Counted from the stretch's first letter, positions 2,119 to 22,311 are shown. The stretch: 40,238 nt of DNA from Bacteriovoracaceae bacterium (GCA_018649885.1 JABIHA010000126.1:62001-102238); one strand, 5' to 3'. The notes: a model not told the origin generated them from the letters alone. Program-made: numbers and translations.

Positions 2119-2164
2119 TTATCCAAAAACCACAGCTAATTAACCAAAATCACAGGAGTTCTCC

Positions 2165-3631
2165 ATCAAACTTTCGATCCCTTCAGCTCTACTTCAAAAA
2201 CCCTCTAAAATTTCACCAACAGGGCAATTAATAGTTTTAGGAAAATTAACTAGAGTTCAAAAATCTAAAATCCTAGAAAAGCATCTTCCCATGTGGCAAA
2301 TAAATCATTTTTTTAATTCAGCAAAAGAGAATTGCTTTTACACAGGACTAACAGGGCCAGTGTGGATTGTTGATTTAGTGGACAAAGAACCTTGCAAAAT
2401 TAATACATCACTTTTATGTGCCTCAAATACAAGTACAGCAAAAAACTTAGTAGGCTCACTCGTGCCTAGTCTTCTTGCTCAAAAACTCACATGCATAGGG
2501 ATCACCTTTCACAAGGTAGAAAAAAATCAAATCATTAGCTCTCTTGTGGGACTTGAAATTGGCCACTACAGTTTCAAAGGAAGGGCGCAAACTCCTTATT
2601 ATCAAATTCAAAATGGGACAAAAGCTATTTCAAATGAAATTAAACAAGCTGCCAGCCTATGTGGAGTTTCAACAAATATTTCAAGGCACCTAGTAAATTT
2701 ACCTGGAAATAAGCTTAATCCAAAAACTTATGCCGAGGCTGCTAAAACACTTTTTAAAGGTTCTAAAAATACTAAAGTTAAAGTTATTGATAGGAATAAA
2801 CTTGGTGAGCTTGGTTATGAGCTTCTTCTTACTGTAGGGGATTCAGCAAGTGCAGCTCCTTGTATTGTTCATTTAAGGTACAGACCACAAGGGGCCAAAG
2901 GCAAACCCGTGGCATTTGTAGGAAAGGGGATCACATTTGACTCTGGCGGGATAAACGTGAAGCCTCACGCTGGAATGAGACTAATGAAAAAAGATATGGG
3001 CGGCTCAGCGGCCCTTATGGGACTTGCTTATTACCTAGACCATTCAAATATAAAAAAACCTGTAGATATTTATCTCTGCCTTGCAGAGAATGCCATTGAT
3101 AGCAAAAGTGCAAGGCCCGGAGATGTTATTAAATCTAAAGCGGGCGTAGAAGTGGAGATTCACCACACAGATGCTGAGGGCAGACTCGCACTGGCTTCTG
3201 GATTAACTATGGCCCAAAATGCGGGGAAAAAAGATGCTCCTAGAGCAGTTATTGACGTGGCCACTCTTACAGGCGCAATCAAAATAGGCCTGGGTTCAGA
3301 TGTTGCGGGGCTATTTTCTAATAATGATAAACTCGCAGCAAAAATTGAAAACGCCAGTCACAGCTCGGGTGAGCACTGCTGGAGAATGCCCATGTATCAA
3401 AATTACAGATCTCAAATTAAGTCTTCCTTTGGCGATATTGTCAATTCAGGAGGAGGGTATGGTGGTGCCATCACAGCTGCGCTCTTTTTAGAGAGTTTCG
3501 TTGAAAATGATATCCCTTGGGCCCATCTTGATATCTATGCTTGGAACGACTCCCCAAAAGGTGCCGTTACTGAAGTAGGCGGTTCAGGCCAAAGTGTAGG
3601 ACTTCTCATTGACCTGATGAAAACTATATAG
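2165..3631 (+). CDS. M17 family leucyl aminopeptidase (PepA/PepB-like); probable ATC start at 2165 (track start is ATG 2291)
   Basis: Motifs VGKGITFDSGG, MKKDMGG, HTDAEGRL, ATLTGA and WAHLDI. The frame is open from 2144, and AGGAG (2154-2158) lies 6 nt before an in-frame ATC. Product call is high confidence, start position moderate. Confidence 0.9.
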   Translation: MKLSIPSALLQKPSKISPTGQLIVLGKLTRVQKSKILEKHLPMWQINHFFNSAKENCFYTGLTGPVWIVDLVDKEPCKINTSLLCASNTSTAKNLVGSLVPSLLAQKLTCIGITFHKVEKNQIISSLVGLEIGHYSFKGRAQTPYYQIQNGTKAISNEIKQAASLCGVSTNISRHLVNLPGNKLNPKTYAEAAKTLFKGSKNTKVKVIDRNKLGELGYELLLTVGDSASAAPCIVHLRYRPQGAKGKPVAFVGKGITFDSGGINVKPHAGMRLMKKDMGGSAALMGLAYYLDHSNIKKPVDIYLCLAENAIDSKSARPGDVIKSKAGVEVEIHHTDAEGRLALASGLTMAQNAGKKDAPRAVIDVATLTGAIKIGLGSDVAGLFSNNDKLAAKIENASHSSGEHCWRMPMYQNYRSQIKSSFGDIVNSGGGYGGAITAALFLESFVENDIPWAHLDIYAWNDSPKGAVTEVGGSGQSVGLLIDLMKTI

Positions 3632-3653
3632 GGGACAGCAAGATAGATTTTAA

Positions 3654-4318
3654 TCAAAAGAAAGCTTGGGTGCCCTTATTTTCAACATCCTCTAGGATCA
3701 TTTCTCTTCTGTAGATTACAAACTCTATTTCTTCTTCTGTTAATAGATCTGTAAACCGAGAACGAATTGTTGAGGGCTCAAGGGAGCTGAGACTGGTAAT
3801 AAACTTTTGGGTATACTTCTCAGGTAAAGTCCTCCCTATTGGAAAGCTAACTGCTCTTGAAGTATCCAATATGCCAACAGCAAAGTCTTGATCAAAATCA
3901 AAACGAACTACCCCACCATCAGGTGTTATGTGAAAATTACTAACACTCCCATCTGAATCCCCAAGTAAAAATGAAAAGGCCTTTGTATCAGACATTTTTT
4001 GAGGGTCGATGACTTGCAAGGCACCTCTCCCCTTAGTAGATATTGCTGCTCAACCAGATAATCAAGCCCCCTAATATGAGCTGCTGAATCAATTTCAAAG
4101 CCTAGGCCTAGAGGCCTGGAAACTCCAGAATCAACTCCTATACTCCACAGTAAGTATCGATCAAAAACAGGCCCCACTACTGGAAGATTCGAGCTTCTTA
4201 TAGCGATGCTATCCGCCATCGCTATAATTTGTGCACATAACTTGGAGGTACCAGCATGCGAATAGCTACCAAAGCTAGAAAATGAAATGAGTAAAATGTA
4301 AACAAATCGCAACGTCAT
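3654..4318 (-). pseudogene. Frameshifted secreted protein with a PI3/4-kinase- or HipA-like C-terminal segment
   Basis: Two overlapping same-strand ORFs. The upstream part starts at ATG 4318 with an RBS and signal peptide. The downstream part (3654-4019) has LLGDSDGSVSNF...RFDFDQDF and LLTEEEIEFVIYRREMIL. The shift must fall 3' of the TGA at 4050-4052. Confidence 0.5.
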
Positions 4319-4527
4319 AGCCCCTTTTCGGGGAATTTCATATGGACAATAAGAGAGTAAAATACTTTTATAAAGTCCCACTGAAAGTATTATTAGGGAC
4401 TTAGTAGTTGAATCCTAAATTTTTCCTTAGATAAATTTCTGAGCTTGGAATAAATAGTGAGAAACAAAATGAAATTTTGAGAGCTACTGCTTTGCCTCTT
4501 AAAGTTTTTGGAGATTCTTAACAATCA

Positions 4528-5331
4528 CTAATGCTTAAATATTGTTGAAGGATAGGTTTCAAAATATTTATAAAGTAGGATTGAGCCAGAGATAGCTGCA
4601 TTTAGTGAGTTCACACCACCTTCGACCATCGGTATTTTTACAAAATGATCGATATAGGGATAGAGATCTTTATCTATCCCTGAGGCTTCACTGCCAATAA
4701 TAAAAACTGCATTTTCAGGGCATTCAAAATAATTGAGACTCTGTCCGAATATTCTGTTTTCAGCACCAATGATGACATGGCCTGAATTCTTTAGAATTCT
4801 TAAACTTTCTTTGAGATCAGAACTCACATGTACTTTTGATTCTAAAAAACATCCCATAGAGACTCTCGCCGAGCGCCTCAAAAATGGAGAAGCAGTGGTC
4901 TTGTCACAGAGAATAGATTTTCCTCCGAGACCAACTTGAGTTCTCACGAGAGAGCCAACATTTTCAGCGCTGTTCACTCCATTTAAAACAACAATAGGAG
5001 AAGTCAGCTCACGTAGTGCAACCGTATCTGGTCGCTCTACCATCGCCATAATTCCTTGGTGCAGCTTAAAGCCCACAACTTCTTCCATCAGCTGTCTCTT
5101 AGCAACAAAGATCCGCTGCTCATCAACGCCATTTTCCCTAAGGAGAGGCTTATATTTAACGTACAAGTCGTGGGTAAGAAATAGACTTTCAATCTTTGCT
5201 GACGCTGCAAGTGCTCTTTCAACTAGCCTCTTTCCGTCAATAACAACGGTGTCACTAGACTGGTGCACTTTTTCCTTAAGAGATAAATACTCAAAAACAC
5301 GTGGATCATCGAGCTTTGTGATTTCTAACAT
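4528..5331 (-). CDS. TrmH/SpoU family RNA 2'-O-methyltransferase
   Basis: SPOUT motifs ENVGSLVR, IIGSEASGI and KIPM...VNSLNAAISGSILLY. Confidence 0.92.
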   Translation of the reverse strand: MLEITKLDDPRVFEYLSLKEKVHQSSDTVVIDGKRLVERALAASAKIESLFLTHDLYVKYKPLLRENGVDEQRIFVAKRQLMEEVVGFKLHQGIMAMVERPDTVALRELTSPIVVLNGVNSAENVGSLVRTQVGLGGKSILCDKTTASPFLRRSARVSMGCFLESKVHVSSDLKESLRILKNSGHVIIGAENRIFGQSLNYFECPENAVFIIGSEASGIDKDLYPYIDHFVKIPMVEGGVNSLNAAISGSILLYKYFETYPSTIFKH

Positions 5332-5388
5332 TTTTACTCACTTCCTTTTAATTTTTAAGAAGTTATAGGTGTTGTCAAAGTGCACCAA

Positions 5389-5418
5389 TTGACAGCAATG
5401 ATAGCCTCAAGGTATCCT
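5389..5418 (+). promoter_or_regulatory. Putative sigma-70 promoter of the carD-like gene
   Basis: Perfect TTGACA (5389-5394), 18 nt, TATCCT (5413-5418). Confidence 0.55.
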
Positions 5419-5560
5419 ATATAGCAAGACGAAGCTTTATAAAGCTTCACAAGGAAATCCCAAAAAGCATTGGAACTTGAACCTACTTATAGATCACATC
5501 TTTTCAATGCCCTGCTTTTAAGTTTCCTCCCTTTTCAAAAACATCAACAAGGAATGTGAA

Positions 5561-6049
5561 ATGTTTAAAATTGGCGACACGGTATCATGCTCAGGATTTG
5601 GCATTGGAATTATCGTAGACATTGAAAATCAAGACCTAGGTGGAAGGTCCATGGACTTTTACGTCGTGGGTGATTTACAAAACACTGACAAAATTAAAAT
5701 ATCGACTACCACAAAAGGGAAATTGAGAGGCCTTCTCAATAAAAGTGAAATGGAGACAATTGTCACATTTTTAAAAACTGAAGGAGACTCCCCTATAAAA
5801 GGTAACAACAGAACTTTCTATCTCAACCTTCTCAATGAATTTAAAACTGGCGATCTTGAAAAAATGGCCCGCGTTTTAAAATCTCTCACACTAAAAAATG
5901 AACAAAGAAAATTGAGAGTTGAAGAGAAAAAACTATATGACCGAGTTAAAGAACAAATCTCAACAGAGATGGCCTTTGTCTATGACATGAGTCCCCTCGA
6001 TGCAAAGTCCTATTTAGAGAAAACTCTTATGATGGATCAGCAGTCGTAG
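5561..6049 (+). CDS. CarD/CdnL family transcription factor (divergent)
   Basis: N-terminal MFKIGDTV...GIGIIVDIE RNAP-interaction domain, a LRGL linker, and C-terminal FKTGD...ARVLKSL...EEKKLYDRVKEQISTEMAFV; 162 aa. Confidence 0.85.
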   Translation: MFKIGDTVSCSGFGIGIIVDIENQDLGGRSMDFYVVGDLQNTDKIKISTTTKGKLRGLLNKSEMETIVTFLKTEGDSPIKGNNRTFYLNLLNEFKTGDLEKMARVLKSLTLKNEQRKLRVEEKKLYDRVKEQISTEMAFVYDMSPLDAKSYLEKTLMMDQQS

Positions 6050-7404
6050 AGATTGTAGGCTTTGATATTGCAAAATTCTTTAAGCCCGAAATGACTAAGC
6101 TCACGTCCAAGCCCACTTTTTTTAATTCCTCCAAAGGGCATTCTTGGATCTGATTTTGTATAAGAATTAATAAACACTGTACCCGATTCAATTTTTCGGG
6201 CCACCATCATGGCCCGATCTAAATCTTTTGACCATACACTTGCTCCCAAACCAAATTCACTAGCATTAGCAAGCTCTATTGCACTGGCATCATCATCTAC
6301 CTTAAAAACAAGAGCAACCGGTCCAAATACTTCTTCAGTAAAAACTCTCATCTTCTCATTTAAATCACATAAGATTGTAGGCGAATAATAAAAACCTTCT
6401 CCTTCAATTCTCTCTCCCCCGCAAACGACTGTAGCTCCTAGTGAAGTTGCATCTACCACTTGAGAATCAATTTCTTCAAGAGCTTTTAAACTTACTAGTG
6501 GACCTATTTGAGTTTTTTCATCTAATGGGTCTCCTATAATTTTAGACTCCACGATCTGTTTAAATTTTTCAACAAACTGATCGTATACATCACTGTGAAT
6601 GATAAATCTTTTGGCAGCAATACAGCTCTGTCCAGTGTTTTGCATCCTTCCCCGTACCGCTCCCTCACAGGCCTTTTCTATATCTGCGTCCTCTAAAACG
6701 ATAAAAGGGTCTGAACCACCAAGCTCTAACACCACTTTTTTTATATTGGCCCCAGCCACCTCGCCAACAAGGGCACCGGCCGTAGTACTTCCTGTAAGTG
6801 AAATTCCACAAACCCTTGGATCTTCAATTAAACCAGTAACACTTTGATGGTCAGTGAGAAGGGTCGCAAAACATCCAGGCATAAAACCCGCATCCATAAA
6901 AGCCTTTTCAAGCATCAGCGCGCAGCCAGGAGTTACATTGGAGTGTTTTAGAAGAGTCGTATTTCCGGAAATCAAAGTGGGAACTGCGAATCGAATCACC
7001 TGCCATAGAGGATAATTCCAAGGCATTATACTGAGAATAACCCCAAGTGGTTCATAACTAATATGGTGACTGAGTCCATCTGCAGTGACCAACTCATCTT
7101 CCAGCCATTTTTTTGAGTTGGTCACATAGCTGTCACAAAGAAGTGCGCATTTTTTCACCTCTGCCCTGGACTCAGTTATGGGCTTGCCCACCTCAATACT
7201 CATTTGTCTTGCAAAGGGTTCAAGGGTATCTAAAAGTACCTGGGATAATTTGGAAACGAACGCAAGCCTAGCTCTCAAATCCAGCTCACTCCAATTTTTA
7301 TAGGTAATATGTGCGGTGCTAAGCTTTTGCTCAATTTCCTGGTCGCTGTGGAATTCGTAGGTGGTAATCACCGTATTGGTAGCTGGATTAATAGGACTAA
7401 TCAT
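6037..7404 (-). CDS. NAD(P)-dependent succinate-semialdehyde dehydrogenase-type aldehyde dehydrogenase
   Basis: Motifs IMPWNYP, LTGST, LELGGSDP, catalytic GQSCIA, EEVFGPV and PFGGIKKSGLGRE. Confidence 0.92.
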   Translation of the reverse strand: MISPINPATNTVITTYEFHSDQEIEQKLSTAHITYKNWSELDLRARLAFVSKLSQVLLDTLEPFARQMSIEVGKPITESRAEVKKCALLCDSYVTNSKKWLEDELVTADGLSHHISYEPLGVILSIMPWNYPLWQVIRFAVPTLISGNTTLLKHSNVTPGCALMLEKAFMDAGFMPGCFATLLTDHQSVTGLIEDPRVCGISLTGSTTAGALVGEVAGANIKKVVLELGGSDPFIVLEDADIEKACEGAVRGRMQNTGQSCIAAKRFIIHSDVYDQFVEKFKQIVESKIIGDPLDEKTQIGPLVSLKALEEIDSQVVDATSLGATVVCGGERIEGEGFYYSPTILCDLNEKMRVFTEEVFGPVALVFKVDDDASAIELANASEFGLGASVWSKDLDRAMMVARKIESGTVFINSYTKSDPRMPFGGIKKSGLGRELSHFGLKEFCNIKAYNLYDC

Positions 7405-7542
7405 AATCTATCCTTTTTGTACTTTAGTTAGCAGGGCAGCATGCACTTGTTCATTAACAATAAGCAATTGATATTCTACAATAGGTATTCTTAGACATAA
7501 AATAATGTCTACAAAGAGCAGGAATCTGCGAAGAGGACTTAA

Positions 7543-9711
7543 ATGAAGTTTTTTCTTATCACTGTGCTTTCCCTCATAAATTTTTATGCCTTTGCCTCTG
7601 ATGATTTTGATCCCAAAGCACTTGTTAAATTTGGGATGCAGACAATAGAAATTGATGGAGAAAATTATCTTTCTGTAAATTACCATAACGAAAAAAAATG
7701 GCACACCTACTGGGTCAATCCAGGAGATGCTGGCAAGGAAATGAAAAACAAGTTCAGCCTAGATGGAAGTGAGCTCACCCTATCTGAACTTGAATGGCCC
7801 GTCCCTAAAAAATATATAGAAGAAGGGGATATTCTGGCCTATGGGTATGAAGGAAGCTACTCACTATTTTTCCACCTTCCAAAAAAACACACTGGAGAAT
7901 TTAAGCTATCTGGCCACTGGTTAGTATGTAAGCATATTTGCATCCCAGGCTCAGGGGAAATCACTGGAGTTTTGAATTCTGGAGATTTAAAAGTAGATGG
8001 TGATAACCTCACCTTGAACCAATCAGATCTTGAAAAAAGTTATCGCCAGTTGCCAGGGCACGGGAAAAAGCCGAAAGAGCTCGAATTGTATATTACAAAA
8101 GGACTCTCTGGTGAGGGGCTAACACTCCACTACTCACTAAAAGGTCCCTTTTCAAAGGGTTTGACTCTAAAGCCAGGACTATTAACTCCATTTCCAAATG
8201 GTATCATTTCATTCAAAAGGGAATATCTATATTCGGACGATGATGGAAACCTAGTAGGCACAATGGATATATTATGGGAAGGCGACTACCTTGAATCACC
8301 TGTGCTAATGCCCACTGATGGAGATTTAAAAACACCGCTGGATTTGAGTTTTCTCTATCGTGATCCAAGCTCTCTCAAAATAACAAAAATTGGGCATCTT
8401 ATTAAATCATTTTCAGTGTCGAGCACTGAAGGCCTAAAAAGCTATTACAAAAGCCTCACACCGTATGGTAGTCAAAATGTAAAAACCAAAAGTGCGAAAA
8501 ATGAAACTTCATTTTTCACTTACCTTCTCTTTGCATTTTTAGGCGGTCTGATTCTCAATATCATGCCGTGTGTACTTCCCATTATCTCTTTAAAACTCTT
8601 TGGCCTCTTGGCCCATAGCGCGGAATCAAAAACGAGGATTCTAAGACATAACCTTACATACTCTGCCGGTGTTATTTCAACCTTTTTACTACTGGCCGGT
8701 CTTGTCTTAATTCTTCAAAGATTAGGAGAGCAAGTTGGTTGGGGTTTTCAAATGCAAAGTATCTCCTTTGTGGGGGCCATGATCATGGTTTTGTTTCTGA
8801 TGGCCTTGAATCTTTTTGGGCTATTTGAATTTGGCACCCCAGGTGGAAAGACGCTAGGGGGAGCAAAATTAAAAGGTGGATTCAAAGGAGACTTTTTAAC
8901 AGGAGTTCTTTCAACAATACTCTCCACCCCATGCTCGGCTCCCTTTTTGGGAACTGCCCTAACATTTGCTTTTACTTCACCTCCTCATATTATCTTTTTA
9001 ATGTTCTTTTTTATAGGCCTTGGTCTCTCCTTTCCATTTTTGGCAACAGGATTTTTCCCTGGATGCCTAAAACTTTTACCAAAGCCAGGACTATGGATGG
9101 AAAACCTAAAGAAGTTTTTAGGCCTCACCATACTTCTCACATTAATTTGGCTCTTTGATGTGTTTATCTCTTTATCACCCACATCCATGGCCATGAATCA
9201 TCTGACAGGTGCTCTCATTTTTATTTTCTTTGCCATCTTCTTTCATCAGAAAATGAGTAAATCAAAAATGTGGAAATCAATTTACTACTTTTTAAGTATT
9301 GCCATGATTGTAGGATTCATCTACCACAGTCAAGATCAAGCACCAGCACCTTCAATAAACCAGGCCACCATGACTCCAGGAGAACTACCGTGGATGCCCT
9401 GGTCGAGAGAGAAAATGAAATCCTTAAAAGGTGAGTTGGTATTCATTAATTTTACTGCCAAGTGGTGCTTTACCTGTAAAGTTAACGAAAAATTTGTCCT
9501 TCACTCTGATGATTTTAAAAATCTAATCGACAAATACCAACTAAAGCTCCTATTAGGAGACTGGACAAAAAGAGATGACCGCATTGGCTCCTTTTTAAAA
9601 GAAAATAGTTTAGTTGGAGTACCAGCTTATTTTATTCAGAAAAAAAATGGAGAATTGATTTCTTTAGGAGAGACGATTTCTATTTCAAAGATCGAATCAA
9701 ACCTTAAATAA
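7543..9711 (+). CDS. dsbD: Thiol:disulfide interchange protein DsbD (N-terminal, transmembrane and thioredoxin domains)
   Basis: WHTYWVNPGDAG and WLVCKHICIPG; transmembrane cysteines in MPCVLP and STPCSAPFLG; thioredoxin motif FTAKWCFTCKVN. Confidence 0.9.
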   Translation: MKFFLITVLSLINFYAFASDDFDPKALVKFGMQTIEIDGENYLSVNYHNEKKWHTYWVNPGDAGKEMKNKFSLDGSELTLSELEWPVPKKYIEEGDILAYGYEGSYSLFFHLPKKHTGEFKLSGHWLVCKHICIPGSGEITGVLNSGDLKVDGDNLTLNQSDLEKSYRQLPGHGKKPKELELYITKGLSGEGLTLHYSLKGPFSKGLTLKPGLLTPFPNGIISFKREYLYSDDDGNLVGTMDILWEGDYLESPVLMPTDGDLKTPLDLSFLYRDPSSLKITKIGHLIKSFSVSSTEGLKSYYKSLTPYGSQNVKTKSAKNETSFFTYLLFAFLGGLILNIMPCVLPIISLKLFGLLAHSAESKTRILRHNLTYSAGVISTFLLLAGLVLILQRLGEQVGWGFQMQSISFVGAMIMVLFLMALNLFGLFEFGTPGGKTLGGAKLKGGFKGDFLTGVLSTILSTPCSAPFLGTALTFAFTSPPHIIFLMFFFIGLGLSFPFLATGFFPGCLKLLPKPGLWMENLKKFLGLTILLTLIWLFDVFISLSPTSMAMNHLTGALIFIFFAIFFHQKMSKSKMWKSIYYFLSIAMIVGFIYHSQDQAPAPSINQATMTPGELPWMPWSREKMKSLKGELVFINFTAKWCFTCKVNEKFVLHSDDFKNLIDKYQLKLLLGDWTKRDDRIGSFLKENSLVGVPAYFIQKKNGELISLGETISISKIESNLK

Positions 9712-10431
9712 GAGACTCACTCCTATAATCAACAGAGTGCTGTGTACAAATTTAAAAAACCAGCTTGGGTTAATTTTTGGCAATAATTTTTCTCCTGCAA
9801 AACCTCCAAGCCAAATTGCAGGAAGCAGGTAAAAAATAGACATTCCCATTTGCTTATCGATGACTCCCCCAATGGAAAATTGAAGGAGTAAAATCAAATT
9901 AAGGACCACCCAAACCATGGCCAGTGTTGCCCTAAAAGTTTCCTTATCAGAAGTCAGATTTCCAACATAGTTAACAATAAGGGGACCTCCGGCTGCAAAC
10001 AGGCCATGAAAGATACCTCCTGTGAATGTTAAGACAAAATTGACAAGTTTATTTGGGCTTTTCTCCATATTCTTTTTAAAAAATAAATTCGAAAGGGCAA
10101 AAAAGATCACGCCTACTCCTAAAACAATTAGTAAGAAATCTACTTTAAAGCTCGCTTTTAAATAAAATCCAACGGCCAATCCCAGTCCCATTTTTGGCAA
10201 TATACTTTTAAGAATTATTTTCCATGAGACACTTTGGTAATTTTGGTAGGAAATTTTTGAAAACTGAATAAACGAGAGGATTACAATAATGGGAACGAGT
10301 CTATCAAGAGAAACTAACTGGGCACCCATGGAAATGGCAATGACAGCACTACCAAAACCAAGAACCGTGCCACAAAATGATGAGACAAATATAGTAAAAA
10401 ATAAAATGACACTAATAAATAGTTGATCCAT
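9697..10431 (-). CDS. TauE/SafE (TSUP) family exporter
   Basis: About 8 TM segments, GTVLGFGSAVI and GLFAAGGP...FRATL motifs. ATG 10431 has AGGTG upstream (track start is TTG 10446). Confidence 0.85.
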   Translation of the reverse strand: MDQLFISVILFFTIFVSSFCGTVLGFGSAVIAISMGAQLVSLDRLVPIIVILSFIQFSKISYQNYQSVSWKIILKSILPKMGLGLAVGFYLKASFKVDFLLIVLGVGVIFFALSNLFFKKNMEKSPNKLVNFVLTFTGGIFHGLFAAGGPLIVNYVGNLTSDKETFRATLAMVWVVLNLILLLQFSIGGVIDKQMGMSIFYLLPAIWLGGFAGEKLLPKINPSWFFKFVHSTLLIIGVSLLFKV

Positions 10432-10650
10432 TTTGGGCACCTGCAAACTGAGATACTAGAGGAATCAGAAAATTTTTCAAGAGTTTTGAAATATTTTGCT
10501 CTGTAGTCACCCAGTGTTTCATGACCCTGGAAGGGGCCAAAATCTATAAAAAACTGTTAAAAAGAGGTAATAATTTCAAACCCTTATAAAACTAGGGGAC
10601 ATAAATCTCCAGATATGATCTACCAAAAGACAATTAATAGGAGCTTCCAA

Positions 10651-13761: not shown

Positions 13762-13769
13762 TAGAAACC

Positions 13770-14306
13770 TTACCTTCTTCGCATTCGCTTTTGAAGATCC
13801 ATCATCTTCTTTTGGAATTCCATGCAAGCGCTTGAAGCTTTTCCGTCTGTGGCCATTTTTTTCATACAGCCTCGAAGCTCTTTTCCCTCAAGTCCTGAGC
13901 AGTGTTTTTCTCTATCGCCCTGGCAAGCTGCGATTCCGTCTTTTTTGGCATTTAAAATTTCTTTGCATCCAGGAGAAATTTCATCAATATGCTTTTGCAA
14001 ACATTCCTTGCCTGCCCTTCTAGCTCCTGCACAGAATTTTTCAATGTCGTCCATACAAGGATTCGCTTGTCTTCTTTGATCCAGCCATCCTTTACACTCA
14101 GGACTAACCTTCCCCTCACTTTCAAGTTTTTTAAGGCATTTAGTGACATGGCCTCGCTCTTTTTTACCCGTGGTCTTAGACATACAGTGCTGCTGCATTT
14201 CTACCATACAAGGATTAATTTTTTTCATCATAGCAAGTCTCTCAGCACTTTGAGAGTAAACCTGCTGACTGAGAGAGACCAATAAAAATAGAGCTATTAA
14301 CTTCAT
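13770..14306 (-). CDS. Secreted cysteine-rich repeat protein (GLG1/Cys_rich_FGFR-like repeats)
   Basis: Signal peptide and three C-x7-C...C[LM]xK...SxxC repeats (NPCMVEMQQHC, NPCMDDIEKFC, AACQGDREKHC). Confidence 0.8.
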   Translation of the reverse strand: MKLIALFLLVSLSQQVYSQSAERLAMMKKINPCMVEMQQHCMSKTTGKKERGHVTKCLKKLESEGKVSPECKGWLDQRRQANPCMDDIEKFCAGARRAGKECLQKHIDEISPGCKEILNAKKDGIAACQGDREKHCSGLEGKELRGCMKKMATDGKASSACMEFQKKMMDLQKRMRRR

Positions 14307-14316
14307 ACGATTACCT

Positions 14317-14342
14317 AAAAAAAAGGGGGCCCCATGACCCCC
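14317..14342 (-). terminator. Rho-independent terminator
   Basis: Minus strand GGGGGTC-ATGG-GGCCCCC followed by T8, just after the stop at 14351. Confidence 0.8.
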
Positions 14343-14350
14343 GTATTGTC

Positions 14351-14872
14351 TTATTTTAAATCAAATTCAAATCTTCTGCCTCTACTTTTTACTTTGTAGT
14401 CATGCTTACTTGAGATCACCTTTGCTTCATAGTCCAGGTCTGCTCTTTTAAAACGTTCTTGATCAATAGTGATTTCAAAAGTTTCAACTTCAACCTTACT
14501 TAACATGGCCGCATCTTTAAAGTTAAGTTTGATACTTTTTTGAACAGTAAGAACTTTTTCAGCGTATCTCATGCAGTATCTTTCATATGATCTATAACGA
14601 TCGTAATCTGAATATCTTGGGTAGTGATCTGGAAATGGGTTGCCTCTCATAACCCATCTCATACAAACTAGTCCTTTATATTTATGAGAAAATTTAACTT
14701 TTACTTTCGCAGGAGTTGCCGCTGTTCTTGTAAGCATTAAAGTTTCTTGCAAACGCATCCCTCTAGCTTGAGTTAACTCACCTAGATTCATTTTTTTATC
14801 ATTAAGTTTCAAATCAACTGATGCCTGAGCACCAAAGGCCAGCAAAAGTGCCAAGACCATTACAAATTTCAT
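14351..14872 (-). CDS. Hypothetical secreted protein
   Basis: Strong GAGGAGGAG RBS, signal peptide ending AQA, and a paired CMRW/CMRY motif. Confidence 0.82.
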   Translation of the reverse strand: MKFVMVLALLLAFGAQASVDLKLNDKKMNLGELTQARGMRLQETLMLTRTAATPAKVKVKFSHKYKGLVCMRWVMRGNPFPDHYPRYSDYDRYRSYERYCMRYAEKVLTVQKSIKLNFKDAAMLSKVEVETFEITIDQERFKRADLDYEAKVISSKHDYKVKSRGRRFEFDLK

Positions 14873-15017
14873 AGCTCCTCCTCGAAGACTGAGTAAAAAT
14901 ATAGAGCTTTGATCATGGCCTTAAAATTTTGGCCTATAAAGACACTATGAAGCATACTTACCCCATTCCTGGCGCGTAGCTCTACCAATTGTGTCTGTCC
15001 TTTAATACACTTATTCC

Positions 15018-16886
15018 ATGAAAAAAATATTCCTACTCATTATGCTTTCTGGTGTTATTGGCTGTAGCTCAAAAAATGGTGATGCTGATAAAAGCCGGAT
15101 TATCATTAATTTGAATAAGTCGACAAACCCTGAGGCCCAGAGCTTTACCGCCGGTGGTGGACCATGGGGCTTGGCCGACCCTAGCTCCATGTCTGAAATA
15201 AATTGTGTTGCTATTTTTATTGGGCGAAATGGAGGAGGAAATGACGGAAGCTGTACTAACAGTAGTGACGTCACTGAGATTGAAGTTTTCGAAATCCTCG
15301 GACCCTATAGTTTCTCAGGTCCGACCCTGACCATTGATGAGAAAATCGAAGCTGAAGACAATCTTAACTTTTATCTTATGGGCCAAAAGTCTACTGGAAG
15401 CTGCCCGGCCAGCTACTTCGGACTTACTCCGGCCCAACTTGTAACTCTTTCTGCCCCCTATGTCTTTGGCTCTACAACTCAGAGTCTGACCGCTGGGGAG
15501 TCCACCACTATCAACTTGTCCGGAGCCTTTGCAGGCTCAACACGAATCAATAATTGCACAGGTGCTCTCTTTGGAAGTAATTACGACTCAATATGTGACC
15601 TCTATCCTAATGTTACTCACTTTGCTGATATCGACATGGGCATTAACGATTATTTGATTTGCAACTCAGACCAATTAGAATCTATTGGCATCGATGGAAC
15701 TGCACTATCGGCAAATTTTGAATTGGCCCAAGACATAGTCTATCCAGCTGGCCCCCACACACCAATTGGATCAGCAGGAGCCCCTTTTACAGGAAATTTT
15801 GAGGGAGGAGACCACAGTATTTCAGGATTTACTACCGCCAACTCCGCACTTTCTCATGTAGGATTTTTCTCCCATACAGATGGTGCAAATATTCAAAACC
15901 TTCACCTAATAAATGCACAAGTTTATGGCAGCGACTATGTAGGAATTCTTATCGGTCACGCAGAAAATGGAAGCAATATATATAATGTGAGGGCCGAAGG
16001 AACCGTCACTGGCGTAAGTAGTAGTGGATCAATTGGCGGCCTAATTGGAAGCTTGGGAGACCCTGGTACTAGTTTAGATAGTTGCAGTTCATCAGCTGAT
16101 ATCACCCTCGATGCTAATGGTAGAGGAGGCTCCCTTGTTGGAATTGTTGAATTCAGCGCCAGTGTTTCCAACTGTAATGCATCGGGCAGTGTAACAGGAG
16201 CAGGGAATGCAAACCGAAGCCTTGGAGGACTTATAGGTCGGCTAGATGATTCTTTTGTTTCCTATACTTATTCTACTGGAGCAGTCAACGATGGCAATAT
16301 AAGTACTGCCAACCTTTATGCTGGAGGACTAGTAGGAGAAGTTATTGCCTCTAGTACATTTAGCTCGTTCGTTTCATCATCTTTTAGTACCGGAGCTGTC
16401 ACCACTATTAGCTCTGGAGCTCAGAGCTCAACGGGTGGATTAGTCGGGATTATGGATGGTACTGCAGGAGGAAGCGCTGGTGTTGACAGCAGTTATTCAA
16501 CTAGCACCGTTACAAGTAGTACTGGAGATGCCTCTTCTGCTGTTGGCGGTCTTGTGGGCGAATGTAACACGGCCACGATTTCGGAGTCATTTAGCATTGG
16601 TAATGTCATATCCAATGGAAACCTTTCTGAAAATGCGTCTCTTTTTCTAGGCCTAGACGTTTCAATTTCATGTGCAATTTCTGATGGGGAGTTCTACACA
16701 AGTGCAACTTGCACCAACTGCCCAACGGGTTCATATATTCAGCCAAACGGTCAAGCAACTACCGGTTACTTTTTCAGCTCATTTGTTAGACCGATGTCCG
16801 GAGCCAGTTGGGATTTTTCCAGTGTATGGTATGGAGACATTGGTACTTTTCCCACACTGCGATCTGCAAGTTCTACCTATGATTAA
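15018..16886 (+). CDS. Surface lipoprotein with GLUG-motif repeats (beta-solenoid)
   Basis: Lipobox VIGC, FTGNFEGGDHSISG, and repeated [IVL]GGL[IV]G units separated by S.STG.V. Confidence 0.85.
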   Translation: MKKIFLLIMLSGVIGCSSKNGDADKSRIIINLNKSTNPEAQSFTAGGGPWGLADPSSMSEINCVAIFIGRNGGGNDGSCTNSSDVTEIEVFEILGPYSFSGPTLTIDEKIEAEDNLNFYLMGQKSTGSCPASYFGLTPAQLVTLSAPYVFGSTTQSLTAGESTTINLSGAFAGSTRINNCTGALFGSNYDSICDLYPNVTHFADIDMGINDYLICNSDQLESIGIDGTALSANFELAQDIVYPAGPHTPIGSAGAPFTGNFEGGDHSISGFTTANSALSHVGFFSHTDGANIQNLHLINAQVYGSDYVGILIGHAENGSNIYNVRAEGTVTGVSSSGSIGGLIGSLGDPGTSLDSCSSSADITLDANGRGGSLVGIVEFSASVSNCNASGSVTGAGNANRSLGGLIGRLDDSFVSYTYSTGAVNDGNISTANLYAGGLVGEVIASSTFSSFVSSSFSTGAVTTISSGAQSSTGGLVGIMDGTAGGSAGVDSSYSTSTVTSSTGDASSAVGGLVGECNTATISESFSIGNVISNGNLSENASLFLGLDVSISCAISDGEFYTSATCTNCPTGSYIQPNGQATTGYFFSSFVRPMSGASWDFSSVWYGDIGTFPTLRSASSTYD

Positions 16887-16899
16887 AACTGAGATAAAT

Positions 16900-18594
16900 T
16901 TATTTTAGAAAGTTTTCCACTTCTTTTGCACAGCCTAGCTGTAGAACGCGCTCAAGTTGCTTCTGGCACTGAGAGTAATGTAATTCTCTAATCAAGGCCC
17001 GAGTGGAAAGAGTATCACTTGGAGTTACCGACAATTCATCGATGCCCATTCCCACCCAAAGGGGTACCAACTCTTTTTGACAAGCGGCTTCTCCGCACAT
17101 CCCAACCCAAATGCCGGCTTCGTGGGCATTTTGAATGACTAGGTTAATGAGTCTTAAAATCGCTGGATTATAAGGTGTGTAGAGATTCATCAGTTTTTGG
17201 TTCATGCGATCTACTGCTACCGTATACTGAATCAAATCATTAGTTCCAATACTCATAAAGTCTACGTGTTTTGCCAATATATCTGACTCAATTGCAGCAG
17301 ATGGAACTTCTATCATCATTCCAAATTCATAATCTTTTGAAAATTCAGTCCCCTCACCTTCAAGCTCTCTTTCACACTCACTAAATAATTCTTTAACCTG
17401 TAATACTTCTTCAAGACATGAAATCATGGGAACCATTATTTTTAGGTTACCATTCACCCCGGCCCTTAAAAGAGCTCTCAGTTGTGTTTTAAATAATTGA
17501 CTATTTTCGAGACAAAGCCTTACCCCTCGGACTCCCAAAAAAGGATTTTCTTCTTTTTCAAGATTTAGATAATCGACTTGTTTGTCTCCACCAATATCGA
17601 GAGTTCTTATGACCACTGGCTTGGGAGACAAGGAAGACAAAACTTCACTATAAACGCTAAATTGTTCCTGCTCGCTAGGTGCAGTATCAGTATTCATAAA
17701 AAGAAATTCTGTTCTAAAAAGGCCCACTCCCTCAGAGTCATTTTCAACAACAAAACTGACATCAGTGGTAGAGCGTATATTTGAAGCCAGTTCGATTTTT
17801 TTAGAATCGAGGGTCACTGTCTCAAGACCATGGTATTTTTTTAAAAGATCTTTATTCTTGCGGTAGTCAATTTTCTTTTCTTCAAACTCTTTGATGACTG
17901 TCTCATCAGGATTGACATAAACCTCGGCAAAATCACCATCAAAGACCAACAAATCACCAGTCGTGACACTTGAAGAAATATTTCCAAGACCAACCACTGC
18001 TGGAATTTCTAAAGTTCTAGCAATAATAGCGCTATGAGAAGTTCTTCCCCCAATATCTGTTAAAAAGCCAACCACTTTAGATCTGTCCATAACAGCTGTT
18101 TCTGAGGGAGTGATATCCCCCGCAACTAAAATGACTTCGTCTTCTAGTGTAGACAAATCACACAAGGGAATTCCCAACATATTTTTGAGAACCCTTTGAG
18201 AAATATCTTTAACGTCAGCACTTCTGGCCCTCATATATTCATCATCCATCGATTCAAAAACAGCGATGAACTGGTCCGTGACTTCTTGGTAAGCAAATTC
18301 ACTGGAGTATTTATGCTCTAAAATAAGAGTTTTTGTTTGATCTAATACTTCAATGTCTTCAAGTAGCATTTGGTGAGATTCAAAAATTAAGGCGTGATCC
18401 TCACCTAAGTTGATTTTAGATTTTTCAGCAATTTTTTGGAGTTGATCTTTAGAGCAAGCGATAGCACTTTCAAGCCTACTAAGTTGAAGATTTGATGAAT
18501 CCACCGTGAGTCTTTCAACCCTAACAGGTGAATTGTTGATAACTAAGGCACGACCAATGGCCACGCCCGGTGATGCTTTGTGCCCTTTAAGCAT
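16900..18594 (-). CDS. ptsI: PEP-protein phosphotransferase (PTS enzyme I)
   Basis: Phospho-His motif GGRTSHSAIIAR, plus GLFRTEFLF, RTLDIGGDK, EENPFLGVRG, SIGTNDLIQY and GMCGE. Confidence 0.97.
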   Translation of the reverse strand: MLKGHKASPGVAIGRALVINNSPVRVERLTVDSSNLQLSRLESAIACSKDQLQKIAEKSKINLGEDHALIFESHQMLLEDIEVLDQTKTLILEHKYSSEFAYQEVTDQFIAVFESMDDEYMRARSADVKDISQRVLKNMLGIPLCDLSTLEDEVILVAGDITPSETAVMDRSKVVGFLTDIGGRTSHSAIIARTLEIPAVVGLGNISSSVTTGDLLVFDGDFAEVYVNPDETVIKEFEEKKIDYRKNKDLLKKYHGLETVTLDSKKIELASNIRSTTDVSFVVENDSEGVGLFRTEFLFMNTDTAPSEQEQFSVYSEVLSSLSPKPVVIRTLDIGGDKQVDYLNLEKEENPFLGVRGVRLCLENSQLFKTQLRALLRAGVNGNLKIMVPMISCLEEVLQVKELFSECERELEGEGTEFSKDYEFGMMIEVPSAAIESDILAKHVDFMSIGTNDLIQYTVAVDRMNQKLMNLYTPYNPAILRLINLVIQNAHEAGIWVGMCGEAACQKELVPLWVGMGIDELSVTPSDTLSTRALIRELHYSQCQKQLERVLQLGCAKEVENFLK

Positions 18595-18610
18595 GTCTCA
18601 CTCCCCGTTT

Positions 18611-18865
18611 TTATTTTTGATCTATTATAAAGGCCTCAAGAGCTTCGAGTGCATTTTGTTCATCATCACCCGTTGCCGTCAAAGTAATTTCAGTATTTTT
18701 TGTAATTCCCATACTCATGACACTCATGACTGACTTGGCATTACCCTTTTTTCCACCGGCCGCGATAGTGATGTCAGAATTAAACTTTGTTGCTTCGCGC
18801 ACAAAAAGAGCAGCAGGTCTTGCATGAAGCCCCGTTTCATTTTTTATCTCAATTACTTTTTCCAT
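18611..18865 (-). CDS. ptsH: Phosphocarrier protein HPr
   Basis: GLHARPAA (His15 motif) and NAKSVMSVMSMG (Ser46 motif); 84 aa. Confidence 0.97.
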   Translation of the reverse strand: MEKVIEIKNETGLHARPAALFVREATKFNSDITIAAGGKKGNAKSVMSVMSMGITKNTEITLTATGDDEQNALEALEAFIIDQK

Positions 18866-19039
18866 AATTTAATAAATCCTTAAATAAAAAATTTCACACC
18901 TTGCGCCACTCTAACCCTAAAAAGCCCCATCGCCAAAGGCAAAGTACACAATTTTTTAGATTTTGCTGCTTTAGCGTTGGCCACAAAATTCCCTTTTAGG
19001 TATAGCTTGGGGCACATCTAAAATATCGGAGTTATTAAT

Positions 19040-20938
19040 ATGGGAAAACAATTATTTGGGCTACTGCAAAAGATTGGGAAATCTTTAATGCTGCCCGTAT
19101 CAGTATTACCTGTTGCAGGTATCTTACTTGGGGTTGGCGCAGCAAATTTTGGTTGGATGCCCCCAATCGTCTCAAACATCATGGCCCAGTCAGGCGGAGC
19201 TATATTTTCCAACCTGGCCTTAATCTTTGCCATTGGTGTAGCACTTGGACTCACAGAAAATGATGGAGTTGCCTCTCTAGCAGCAGTTGTCGGCTACGTT
19301 GTTCTCCTAGGCACCATGGGTGTTATGGCCTCAGGTGTTTTTGGACTTGAAACCAAAACCATAATGGGAATTAAAACCTTGGAAACGGGAGTTTTCGGAG
19401 GGATCCTGATAGGTTCAGCTGCGGGATTTTTGTTTAATAAATTCTATCGTATATCTCTGCCACCATACCTAGGTTTTTTTGCTGGCAAAAGATTTGTTCC
19501 TATCATTACAAGTTTTGCGGCCATAGCCATGGGAATTGCCCTATCAGTAGTATGGCCTCCAATCCAATCTGGAATTGATTCTTTTTCTCATTGGGCAACT
19601 GCTGGAAACCCAACTCTTATGAGTTTTGTCTACGGTGTAGGAGAAAGAAGCCTTATTCCTTTTGGACTTCACCATATATGGAATGTTCCCTTCTTTTTTG
19701 AGATTGGCTCATTTGCCAACTCAGCTGGAGAAGTTGTTCACGGTGATATCACCCGATTTTTTGCAGGTGATAAAACTGCTGGATTTTTAGGCGGAGCCTT
19801 TTTGTTTAAAATGTTTGGTCTTCCAGCTGCGGCACTTGCCATCTGGCATTCAGCAAAACCTGAAAATAAAAAGGCCGTCGGTGGAGTGATGATTTCAGCT
19901 GCTCTCACTTCTTTTTTAACAGGAATTACAGAGCCAATTGAATTTGCCTTCTTGTTTGTGGCACCACTTCTCTACGCCATTCACGCCCTTCTAGCAGGTG
20001 CTAGTTTTGTCCTGTTTGACTTACTAGGTGCTAAACTGGGAACGACTTTTTCTCATGGATTAATCGACTTTGTTCTCTACTGGAAACTGAGCACTAAGCC
20101 ATGGCTTGTTCTAATCTTTGGACCAATGTACGCAGCTCTCTACTACGGCATCTTTAGAGTGATGATAGCCAAATTTAACTTTCTCACTCCTGGTCGTGAA
20201 GATAAGGTTGAAGCAATTACACTCAAACCAGATCAAATCGGAGGCGAGCTAGTTGCTGCCTTCGGTGGTGCCAGCAATATCGAAAGCCTAGACGCTTGTA
20301 TCACTAGGCTTAGAATCACACTTGTAGATCTTTCTAAAGCCGATAAGGAGCGCATTAAAGCACTTGGTGCAACAGGTGTACTAGTTATTGGAAATAGCAT
20401 GCAGGCCATTTTCGGGACCCTTTCAGATAACTTAAAGACCCAAATGAAAATCTACATGGACCACCAAATTAACAAACCTGCCACTTCTGAAATAGTAGTC
20501 CACGCTCCCATGGCCGGACAAATCCTATCCCTAGAAGAAGTTCCAGATGAAGTTTTCTCTAGCAAAATGATGGGGGAAGGCTTTGCAGTTAAACCTACGG
20601 ACGGCGAAGTGAGATCTCCAGTTACAGGAGTCGTAGCTCACGTATTCCCTACAAAACACGCCATAGGCCTTATCGCCACAGATGGTACTGAAGTTTTAGT
20701 CCACTTTGGTATTGATAGTGTTAAATTAAAAGGTGAAGGAATTACGACCTACGTAAAAGAAGGCCAAGATGTGAAAGCAGGAGATCGTCTCTTAAGTGTT
20801 GATCTCAGCGCCATCGAAAGTAAAATTCCTTCAACTGTGACTCCCATCATTTTTACAAACCTTCCTGCAGGTAAAAAATTCTCACTTAATAAAAAGAATG
20901 TGGATATTAATCAATCTGATTTTTTAACTTGGCAATAA
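19040..20938 (+). CDS. ptsG: PTS glucose-family transporter EIICBA
   Basis: EIIC motifs [25 protein letters not shown] and [39 protein letters not shown]...VHFGIDSV. Confidence 0.93.
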
Positions 20939-20950
20939 AAGAAGCAAGCT

Positions 20951-20982
20951 GAGCGTCTATTTCAATAGGCGCTCTTTTTTTT
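20951..20982 (+). terminator. Rho-independent terminator of ptsG
   Basis: GAGCGTCTATT-TC-AATAGGCGCTC followed by T8. Confidence 0.9.
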
Positions 20983-20983
20983 A

Positions 20984-22036
20984 TTAAGGCTGTAATTCAA
21001 AAGTAATAGGGGATTTCATAACGGCGGCGATTGTCTGTGAAGGATCTACACCTTTATAAAGAACCTTATAAAGACCTACAAAAATTCGTGATTTAATTTG
21101 ATATTTTTGACTTAGAAGGTAGGCAGCTTTAGTTGTTTTATAACCTTCTACAACTGTCCTTTGAGATTTAATAATCTCCTCAGCACTTCTGCCTTTGGCA
21201 ATTTCAAGTCCAAAGAGCTTATTTCGACTCAAACCTCCTGTTGAGGTCAAAATCAAATCTCCCATCCCTGAAAGGCCATAAAATGTTTCTGGTCTAGCAT
21301 TAAAAACAACGCCAAATCGTCTCATCTCAACAATCCCTCTGGTAATCATGGCAGCCCTGGTATTGTGATTATAACCAAGGCCTTCAATAATCCCAGCAGC
21401 AATGGCCAAAATATTTTTAAGAGCACCCCCGAGAAGCACTCCTTTCACATCGTAAGTTGGAAGACATCTAAAATAACTTGTCTGCAACATTTCAGCGACT
21501 TTAAATAAGTTGTAATATGATCTTCCGGCAAGAGAAACAAGTGTGATTTGCTCTTCCAAGATCTCTTTTGCAAAAGATGGCCCAGAGAGAAAACAAAATG
21601 AATCTCTAAACTTTGGAAAATAATCGTAGAACAAATCATCGGGAAGCTCTAATGTATCTGGATCTATCCCTTTAGACAATGATACAAAAGGTATCTCTTT
21701 TTCTAGATAACTTAAAACGAGTTCTTTATTCTCTTCACAAAAATTTTTGATTGCACTTGAAGGCAGTCCAGAAACAACTAGCTCAAGCTCACCGTCAGTT
21801 CTTTTTTCAACCTCATCCCAAGTTAGGGCGGGTACAATATTCTTTGGTAGTTTATGGCCTGGAAGGTAAATCTTGTTTTCACCTTCTAGAAGGCCTCGGT
21901 AATTATCCTCAGATCTAACTTTTAAAATAACCGTTTTAAAGTTACTTGCAAGAACTGAGGCGATTGATGTCCCAAAAGCTCCGGCCCCAATAACTAATGC
22001 TGTATCGTAACTGGGATTTTCTTGTTTAGCTTTTAT
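20984..22036 (-). CDS. gpsA: NAD(P)H-dependent glycerol-3-phosphate dehydrogenase, about 350 aa, apparent ATA start
   Basis: The track ORF (231 aa) has SKG, LSGPSFA, GGALKN, GLSGMGDL and SRN motifs. The same frame is open 119 codons further upstream and includes Rossmann VIGAGAFGTS and ENKIYLPG. AGGAG lies 5 nt before ATA at 22036. Confidence 0.93.
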   Translation of the reverse strand: MKAKQENPSYDTALVIGAGAFGTSIASVLASNFKTVILKVRSEDNYRGLLEGENKIYLPGHKLPKNIVPALTWDEVEKRTDGELELVVSGLPSSAIKNFCEENKELVLSYLEKEIPFVSLSKGIDPDTLELPDDLFYDYFPKFRDSFCFLSGPSFAKEILEEQITLVSLAGRSYYNLFKVAEMLQTSYFRCLPTYDVKGVLLGGALKNILAIAAGIIEGLGYNHNTRAAMITRGIVEMRRFGVVFNARPETFYGLSGMGDLILTSTGGLSRNKLFGLEIAKGRSAEEIIKSQRTVVEGYKTTKAAYLLSQKYQIKSRIFVGLYKVLYKGVDPSQTIAAVMKSPITFELQP

Positions 22037-22050
22037 GGGTGCTCCTGTTG

Positions 22051-22311
22051 TTAAAGTCCCATGACTCCATCAATGCCATTAACTTTTTCATAAAGATTTA
22101 ATACTTCGTCTGAGGAGTTTACCAAAACATGTGCAGTAAAGCTTCTATACTTACCAGTTTTTGAAGCTCTAATAGTCACACGGTGCTCCTTCAAAATGTC
22201 GTTTACTAAGTGTGATGTTTCGCTTTTTACGATACATTTAAAATTGTAGTGTGCCGGCCAGTCATATTGCCGATCAAGAAGTTCCTTGAACTTCTCCCGT
22301 TTTTCCCCCAT
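22051..22311 (-). CDS. DUF493/YbeD family protein
   Basis: WPAHYNFKCIV, SKTGKYRSFT and LYEKV...GVMGL; 86 aa. Confidence 0.85.
   Translation of the reverse strand: MGEKREKFKELLDRQYDWPAHYNFKCIVKSETSHLVNDILKEHRVTIRASKTGKYRSFTAHVLVNSSDEVLNLYEKVNGIDGVMGL

Follow-up and report, generated by a model that had tools for sequence, protein, structure and literature searches.

Introduction

Annotated start codons in model bacteria are ATG in 81.8%, GTG in 13.8% and TTG in 4.35% of cases, according to a study (10.1101/063800) in which the near-cognate codons AUA, AUC, AUU and CUG are described as initiating at 1-2% of the AUG level in Escherichia coli, and which counts no confirmed non-canonical starts in that bacterium other than those of infC and pcnB. 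In Staphylococcus aureus, initiation profiling is reported to place AUA at infC, ccpN and citZ and AUU at cvfC1, with extended Shine-Dalgarno (SD) sequences and about 10% of the output of AUG (PMC13009471). In Listeria monocytogenes, mutations of the rsbW start from ATG to ATA or ATT are reported to lower translation, and such start-codon changes are described as clade-specific and readily arising (PMC13068326). On the side of the machinery, the E. coli allele infC362, which encodes initiation factor 3 (IF3) with the substitution Y75N, is described as a fidelity mutant (PMC7145577).

Here we consider a stretch of 40,238 nucleotides (nt), referred to as the window (contig C16, positions 62001-102238), from the metagenome-assembled genome (MAG) of a Bacteriovoracaceae bacterium (G000). 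Two of its genes, an M17 (leucyl) aminopeptidase and gpsA, carry ATC and ATA, respectively, at the position where their orthologues have a canonical start. We consider it probable that both genes are intact and working, that an ancestral ATG mutated to a near-cognate codon in each of them, and that initiation still takes place there by way of a strong SD sequence.

The genome comprises 5.45 Mb in 151 contigs, with 38% G+C, 92% completeness and 3.9% contamination; in size it exceeds all 40 relatives sampled (0.9-4.4 Mb). Its closest relatives in terms of gpsA, both MAGs and isolates, carry the labels Bacteriovoracaceae, Halobacteriovoraceae or Halobacteriovorax, and the top matches besides the organism itself are 71-72% identical, in metagenome and genome collections alike. 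The DNA of the window was found again in marine metagenomes.

The putative ATA start of gpsA

The site reported on the minus strand by the first-pass annotation, ACAGGAG-caccc-ATA-AAA, is present as described at 22048-22031. The SD sequence ACAGGAG (22042..22048, minus strand) begins 2 nt past the stop codon of the preceding DUF493 gene and is followed by the 5-nt spacer caccc and by the putative start codon ATA (22034..22036), which has AAA as second codon and occupies the start position of the orthologues. Read from ATA, gpsA (20984..22036, minus strand) has 350 codons plus stop and encodes, according to Pfam, an NAD(P)H-dependent glycerol-3-phosphate dehydrogenase, with matches to NAD_Gly3P_dh_N at residues 15-171 and to NAD_Gly3P_dh_C at residues 196-336.

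The open frame runs from 22069 to 20984. A TTG (21677..21679, minus strand), 119 codons past ATA and 130 codons past the upstream stop, is the first canonical codon in it; this start-less leader is the longest in the genome, among 4088 long open reading frames (ORFs). The NAD-binding motif GAGAFG lies at residues 17-23 counted from ATA, upstream of the first canonical codon, and the ATA at 22036 is the sole near-cognate codon with an SD sequence upstream of this motif. The TTG at 21679 was rejected as the start, given that it would drop 119 residues, including the Rossmann motif GAGAFG and most of the N-terminal domain. The genome holds one gpsA match, with no second one detected, and therefore this copy presumably has to work.

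Each of the 20 orthologues of the family whose 5' end is intact (L002-L021, from other genera) presents ATG (17) or GTG (3) at the place of ATA, located, like ATA itself, 5-15 codons upstream of the GxGxxG motif. In a broader sample of 143 loci, drawn from metagenomes and species genomes, 132 have a canonical start (ATG in 116, GTG in 8 and TTG in 8). The other 11 comprise eight loci without the anchoring motif, one that runs off the contig end, and two without a canonical start, L217 and L268, which are 100%-identical metagenome contigs of the same organism and both read ATA.

Directly upstream of gpsA lies the DUF493 (YbeD-like) gene (22051..22311, minus strand; Pfam DUF493), whose TAA stop is 14 nt before ATA. 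On the same strand, a DUF493 match precedes gpsA in 16 of the 20 family loci (L002-L021), at a distance of at most 43 nt in 15 of them. Given that DUF493 is kept this close upstream of gpsA, translational coupling between the two genes is plausible.

The putative ATC start of the M17 aminopeptidase

The site on the plus strand, ACAGGAG-ttctcc-ATC-AAA, also reads as previously described, at 2152-2170; the position 2153 originally given for it is one base off. The SD sequence ACAGGAG, with its AGGAG core (2152..2158, plus strand), is separated by the 6-nt spacer ttctcc from the putative start codon ATC (2165..2167), again with AAA as second codon. From ATC the gene (2165..3631, plus strand) has 488 codons plus stop, within a frame that extends from stop to stop over 2144-3631, and its product matches Pfam Peptidase_M17 at residues 171-481 with an E-value of 8.5e-104.

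In four relatives (G003, G013, G015 and G011), the orthologue has its ATG exactly where ATC stands at 2165, and the N-terminal peptide is kept: the orthologues read M-Q-F-K-V-S-S-S-L and M-N-F-K-I-E-S-S-L, in comparison with I-K-L-S-I-P-S-A-L here. The first ATG, GTG or TTG in frame is an ATG (2291..2293, plus strand) 42 codons past ATC. It was rejected as the main start, having no SD sequence upstream and sitting 42 codons within the region aligned to the orthologue N-termini. A promoter scan of 1900-2350 produced no plus-strand match upstream of ATC. A second M17 paralogue is present in the genome, at C20:150924-151877.

AGGAG thus lies at working distance of both weak codons (6 nt from ATC and 5 nt from ATA), and the functional feature shared by the two sites would be this 5-mer SD sequence at the modal spacing.

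Agreement with independent assemblies

Metagenome contigs of four other marine runs (X2, X3, X4 and X7, with run years 2012-2019) were compared with positions 2140-22060. In run X3, a 7481-nt contig covers 2140-7234 and extends upstream, and a 5356-nt contig covers 21483-22060 and extends on, both with 0 differences. No differing letters are listed at the ATC or ATA site in the contigs of any of the four runs. Assembly errors, which the first-pass annotation had named as a possible source of both codons, can hence be set aside, with contigs from other samples reading the same letters.

Contigs hide minority alleles, and the samples represent essentially one population (at least 99% identity), so the letters are real and widespread in the species, which does not show their age. 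The sole difference listed over the 19.9 kb is at position 16620, with A in the window and C in the contigs of X2, X3 and X7; the population is therefore nearly clonal across the 2012-2019 samples.

Weak starts across the genome

The 4088 long ORFs are those of at least 150 codons with a closed 5' end, after removal of overlaps. Every in-frame codon from the upstream stop to 10 codons before the first canonical start was scored for a GGAG located 5-9 nt upstream. Before first canonical starts, the spacing of GGAG peaks at 5-8 nt, with a modal GGAG-to-start spacing of 6 nt. Among near-cognate codons of the leaders, those preceded by GGAG are 9/320 for ATA, 4/183 for ATC, 8/421 for ATT and 4/103 for CTG, which pooled yields 25/1027 (2.4%), in comparison with 104/9812 (1.06%) for the other codons, an odds ratio of 2.33 and a Fisher p of 6.6e-4. 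When 58 codons are ranked by this rate, CTG is 1st, ATA 2nd, ATC 6th and ATT 7th. The shifted-frame controls present no excess in these leaders (15/1094 for +1 and 7/704 for +2). The version of the test with 5-mer SD sequences yielded 25/1027 versus 120/9812, a p of 0.0037 and an excess of 12.4.

These values support the existence of a small class of near-cognate starts behind SD sequences, of about 12-14 of the 4088 long ORFs (about 0.3%). The genome-wide class of non-canonical starts proposed in the first-pass annotation is hence supported as an in-frame enrichment that vanishes in shifted frames, and the class is small. For two cases in 38 genes, P is about 0.008 at the estimated genome rate of 14/4088, yet this figure is inflated, because the window was picked for these two sites. 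Only 756 of the 4088 long ORFs have a canonical start with AGGAG or GGAGG at working distance.

Besides the two genes of the window, several candidate members have further evidence. The infC gene has an ATT start behind AGGAGGTG. An ABC ATPase with ATA matches Pfam ABC_tran from residue 22 and has GPNGGGKS at residues 39-46, with its first canonical codon 35 codons later; a patatin with CTG has its domain from residue 14 and its first canonical codon 22 codons past CTG; and a GNAT acetyltransferase with ATA has support that is independent of the SD sequence. For the candidates C105:24939, C60:9524, C36:4279 and C24:52449, the alignment with homologues in a second genome of the family, G003, sets in at residues 1-11 of the candidates; these homologues have ATG, GTG, TTG and ATG starts, respectively. 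Five further candidates have signal-peptide-like N-termini right after the weak codon as read by eye, which is suggestive. The 5-mer test also picked out an ATT at position 10573 of the window, but this was not accepted as a start: an ATG follows 14 codons further on, and the signal-peptide-like sequence MKILSILSI begins at a later, second ATG.

Comparison with a second genome

G003, which belongs to another genus and is 100% complete, served as the control genome. The GGAG test yielded 6/461 near-cognate versus 26/3622 other codons in it, and the 5-mer test 8/461 versus 32/3622, an excess of about 3-4 in 2107 ORFs. Per ORF, the comparison of the two genomes is thus 25/4088 versus 6/2107 (p 0.09), or versus 8/2107 (p 0.27), and the two rates are not significantly different.

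The control genome has well-supported weak starts of its own, namely infC, an ATT gene and three ATA genes, one of which has 156 start-less codons. With the exception of infC, the homologues of these genes in G000 start with ATG or TTG; conversely, all weak starts of G000 that have a counterpart in the control genome are canonical there, again except infC. The control's gene with the long start-less stretch, at C1 ~1701998 on the minus strand (loci L085-L204), has 266 codons, 156 of them without ATG, GTG or TTG past an ATA that follows AAAGAGG, and its homologue on contig C25 of G000 has an ATG start. For 22 of the 34 weak-start candidates of G000 no homologue is present in the control genome.

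A homology test independent of the SD sequence, which requires that the best hit in the other genome begin 8 or more residues upstream of the first canonical codon, flagged 29 of 263 queries from G000 and 26 of 183 from the control. A near-cognate codon is absent from many of the flagged ORFs, which may reflect frameshifts, fusions or extensions due to chance, and these counts were used only for symmetry. Neither the peptidase, with its weak N-terminal conservation, nor gpsA, whose orthologue lies outside the fetched part of the control genome, was picked up.

The ATA of gpsA and the ATC of the peptidase are not conserved across genera, since every relative examined has a canonical codon in their place. 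With infC as the exception, the weak starts are labile and private to each lineage, with no conserved set.

The initiation machinery

The initiator transfer RNA (tRNA) gene at C24:70039-70115 is canonical, with a C1xA72 mismatch, a CAU anticodon and, adjacent to the anticodon loop, three G-C pairs. When aligned to E. coli IF3 (8jsg_A), the IF3 of this genome retains Y75, R99, D106, R131 and E134. Among these residues, we take R99 and E134 to be involved in start-codon selection. Y75 and R131 have been named for this function in published work (PMC7145577, PMC3401457).

In comparison with 24 relatives, four conserved columns of IF3 are changed: V39I, K83A, K/R115G and L121I. Position 115 corresponds to R112 of E. 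coli, a residue at which mutation reportedly disrupts binding to the ribosome (PMC3401457). K115G was rejected as a diagnostic cause, given that the IF3 of Thermus thermophilus also carries Gly at this position.

The infC start codons of the 24 relatives (L061-L084), read by eye, are mostly ATT, with ATA in L063 and ATC in L074 and L084; a few are apparently canonical by the same reading, with ATG in L076 and L080 and TTG in L071. In G000, as in most relatives, the ATT of infC is a hallmark of normally autoregulated IF3.

The 790 loop of 16S ribosomal RNA (rRNA) presents 0 mismatches to the universal motif as typed in for the comparison. The sole 16S rRNA piece (C15:149-1032) lies at a contig edge and covers positions 9-873, so that the 3' part, with the anti-SD sequence and positions 1338/1339, is outside the assembly. 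The rRNA and tRNA complement of the assembly is incomplete, with only 35 tRNA genes found.

Shared context and CsrA

Among 1201 canonical starts preceded by GGAG, the second codon AAA is the commonest (263), A precedes GGAG in 555, ACA precedes GGAG in 21, and CC precedes the start in 59. In the window, ACAGGAG has 9 matches in comparison with 4.26 expected, and at least 9 were obtained in 4 of 100 shuffles, a mild over-representation. ACAGGAG is absent from every other weak-start candidate of the genome; therefore the shared ACAGGAG and CC, though uncommon, do not form the signature of a class that the first-pass annotation had proposed.

A csrA gene is present in the genome, and each of the two leaders has one GGA in its SD region. 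The minimum free energies of the leaders are -6.2 and -10.3 kcal/mol, with z-scores of -0.15 and +0.40 against shuffles, and no stable hairpin presenting GGA was found in them. The earlier suggestion of dual control by CsrA is therefore not supported: the leaders fold no better than shuffled sequences, and AGGA is generic to SD sites.

Other features of the window

Within the ORF at 6037-7404 (minus strand), the contigs of all four marine runs match about 38 nt at 6602-6639 and then continue into unrelated sequence on both sides, with a loose-end consensus that does not vary from run to run. Either a repeat or a short segment in common with another abundant organism may explain this. The translation of the ORF at 19040-20938 (plus strand, 632 residues) resembles, as read by eye without a Pfam check, a fused phosphotransferase system (PTS) sugar transporter of the EIICBA type. 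If this is true, such a transporter would be unexpected for a predatory lineage of the Bacteriovoracaceae.

Discussion

The proposed explanation is that ATG changed to ATC in the M17 aminopeptidase and to ATA in gpsA, and that the initiator tRNA still begins translation at the mutated codon. The AGGAG sequence, at an optimal 5-6 nt, would set the weak codon in the P site, and in the case of gpsA ribosomes that end DUF493 translation 14 nt upstream may add to initiation. Output would probably be below that of ATG. Weak starts of this kind are best taken as tolerated or mildly tuning substitutions behind strong SD sequences, with frequent G-to-A change in a genome that is AT-rich. That they are private to each lineage in the comparison of two genomes favours such substitutions over a regulon or an altered machinery.

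Several points weigh against this explanation, or limit it. By chance alone, about 11 of the 25 near-cognate sites with SD sequences are expected. When a loose SD definition is used (any of AGGA, GGAG or GAGG), no enrichment is found in G000 (43/1027 versus 338/9812, p 0.21); the control genome yields 16/461 versus 96/3622. This definition is considered uninformative because AGGA is too common in AT-rich DNA, hence the use of the GGAG and 5-mer tests. Hydrophobic N-termini among the 25 sites are not significantly more frequent (7/25 versus 14/104, p 0.13). The nominal per-ORF excess of about twofold over the control genome (p 0.09) could be a modest real difference, and the control counts cover 2,635,933 of the 3,435,933 bases of contig C1, with 2.4-3.2 Mb left out. 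The relatives compared are all of other genera. Finally, the peptidase could also, or instead, start at the ATG at 2291, with 42 residues less, and the constraint on this copy is weaker than that on gpsA because a second M17 paralogue exists.

Among the other explanations is relaxed start-codon discrimination, in which a variant IF3, initiator tRNA or 16S rRNA lets ATA, ATC, ATT and CTG starts build up genome-wide. This was put forward in the first-pass annotation, and we regard it as unlikely. The enrichment of near-cognate starts is in agreement with it, as are the nominally doubled rate and the four IF3 columns at which this genome alone departs from its relatives (one of them aligned with R112 of E. 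coli); a change in the 16S 3' part, outside the assembly, would go unseen. Yet the initiator tRNA is fully canonical, the five IF3 residues are kept, the glycine of the Thermus factor shows that the change at position 115 is not diagnostic, and the 790 loop is an exact match. An ATT start of infC is sensible only if IF3 discriminates against ATT, and the control genome, whose IF3 has Lys at position 115, has ATA and ATT starts of its own at a similar rate. A conserved regulon tuned by the stringency of initiation, possibly with CsrA acting at ACAGGA, was part of the same proposal and is very improbable. What speaks for it is the presence of csrA and the joint occurrence of ACAGGAG, a CC preceding the weak codon and AAA as the next codon, given how rarely ACA and CC take these places among canonical starts. 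AAA is merely the commonest second codon, however, no further candidate has ACAGGAG, no hairpin presents GGA, and, infC aside, none of the weak starts that have a counterpart is kept in both genomes. The genes are also unrelated in function, comprising lipid synthesis, a peptidase, an ABC ATPase, GNAT, patatin, a helix-turn-helix regulator and secreted proteins.

The remaining explanations concern the two genes themselves. Mutation of the start codons may have inactivated the proteins or shortened them, with the peptidase starting at the ATG at 2291, and with gpsA decaying or starting at the TTG at 21679. Canonical in-frame codons do exist downstream in both genes, and the peptidase has its paralogue; but both frames are open over their full length with intact Pfam domains, GpsA from the TTG would be without its NAD-binding motif while no second gpsA was found, and the ATG at 2291 has no SD sequence, with the 42 codons before it still aligning with orthologue N-termini. 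We hence give this explanation little chance. Even less is to be expected of the idea that the codons are errors of assembly or sequencing, or rare strain-private variants of genes that truly start with ATG. It draws on the state of the MAG (151 contigs, incomplete and with some contamination), on the absence of either codon from any other genus compared, and on the fact that a minority ATG allele could hide in contigs, which mask rare variants. The contigs of run X3 nevertheless read both sites with 0 differences, no alternative letters appear in X2, X3, X4 or X7, and the metagenome contigs L217 and L268 also have ATA, which leaves this idea with hardly any credibility.

Taking the two genes as intact and initiated at their near-cognate codons, the main value of the result lies in annotation. 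Gene finders that accept only ATG, GTG and TTG would cut gpsA to 231 residues without the NAD-binding domain and the peptidase to 446. Some dozen further genes in G000 would lose their N-termini likewise, which touches metabolic reconstruction from MAGs. An essential lipid-synthesis gene with an ATA start would also join the short list of native AUA starts. The finding does not open a new question.

A wider claim can be made only tentatively, and we hold it to be rather improbable: marine Bacteriovoracaceae and Halobacteriovoraceae may tolerate near-cognate starts, ATA foremost, at a frequency several-fold above the approximately 0.05% annotated in model bacteria, with sets that turn over quickly in each lineage, even at the essential, single-copy gpsA. 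If true, this would indicate family-level weak selection on start identity, or a milder IF3 stringency, where the SD sequence is strong, and G000 might sit at the upper end, with its nominal twofold rate over the control and the IF3 changes K83A and K115G.

Comparison with known systems

The infC and pcnB genes of E. coli, whose translation is held down by an inefficient AUU start against which IF3 discriminates, are similar to the sites described here in that a near-cognate AUA, AUC or AUU lies behind an SD sequence at the conserved start of an ordinary gene, and the infC of this genome has ATT as well. The AUU of E. coli infC differs in being widely conserved and autoregulatory, whereas the ATA of gpsA and the ATC of the peptidase are private to the species, with no evident feedback role. 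With regard to the machinery, IF3 fidelity mutants would provide the mechanism if discrimination were relaxed; the IF3 studied here keeps Y75 and the other residues compared, and so is not such a variant.

The likeness to S. aureus is as follows, as far as the published description goes: AUA and AUU are found there on housekeeping and metabolic genes behind strong, well-spaced SD sequences, the AUA of citZ is lineage-specific, and the frequency is of a similar order, with four sites in one genome (PMC13009471). In contrast, Ribo-RET served to map the S. aureus starts, reporters were used to test them, and those of ccpN and cvfC1 are conserved across species (PMC13009471), whereas the present sites were read from DNA; the SD sequences reported there are also long and extended, in comparison with the 5-mer AGGAG here.

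In the case of rsbW in Listeria, the changes from ATG to ATA or ATT are likewise derived, occur at conserved genes and differ between clades, as expected of labile tuning or of tolerated mutation (PMC13068326). There, according to the same report (PMC13068326), they were selected under acid stress and their effects measured, while the sites of the window were read from sequence. By analogy with these systems, the ATC of the aminopeptidase and the ATA of gpsA appear to be another case of the known near-cognate start rescued by a strong SD sequence.

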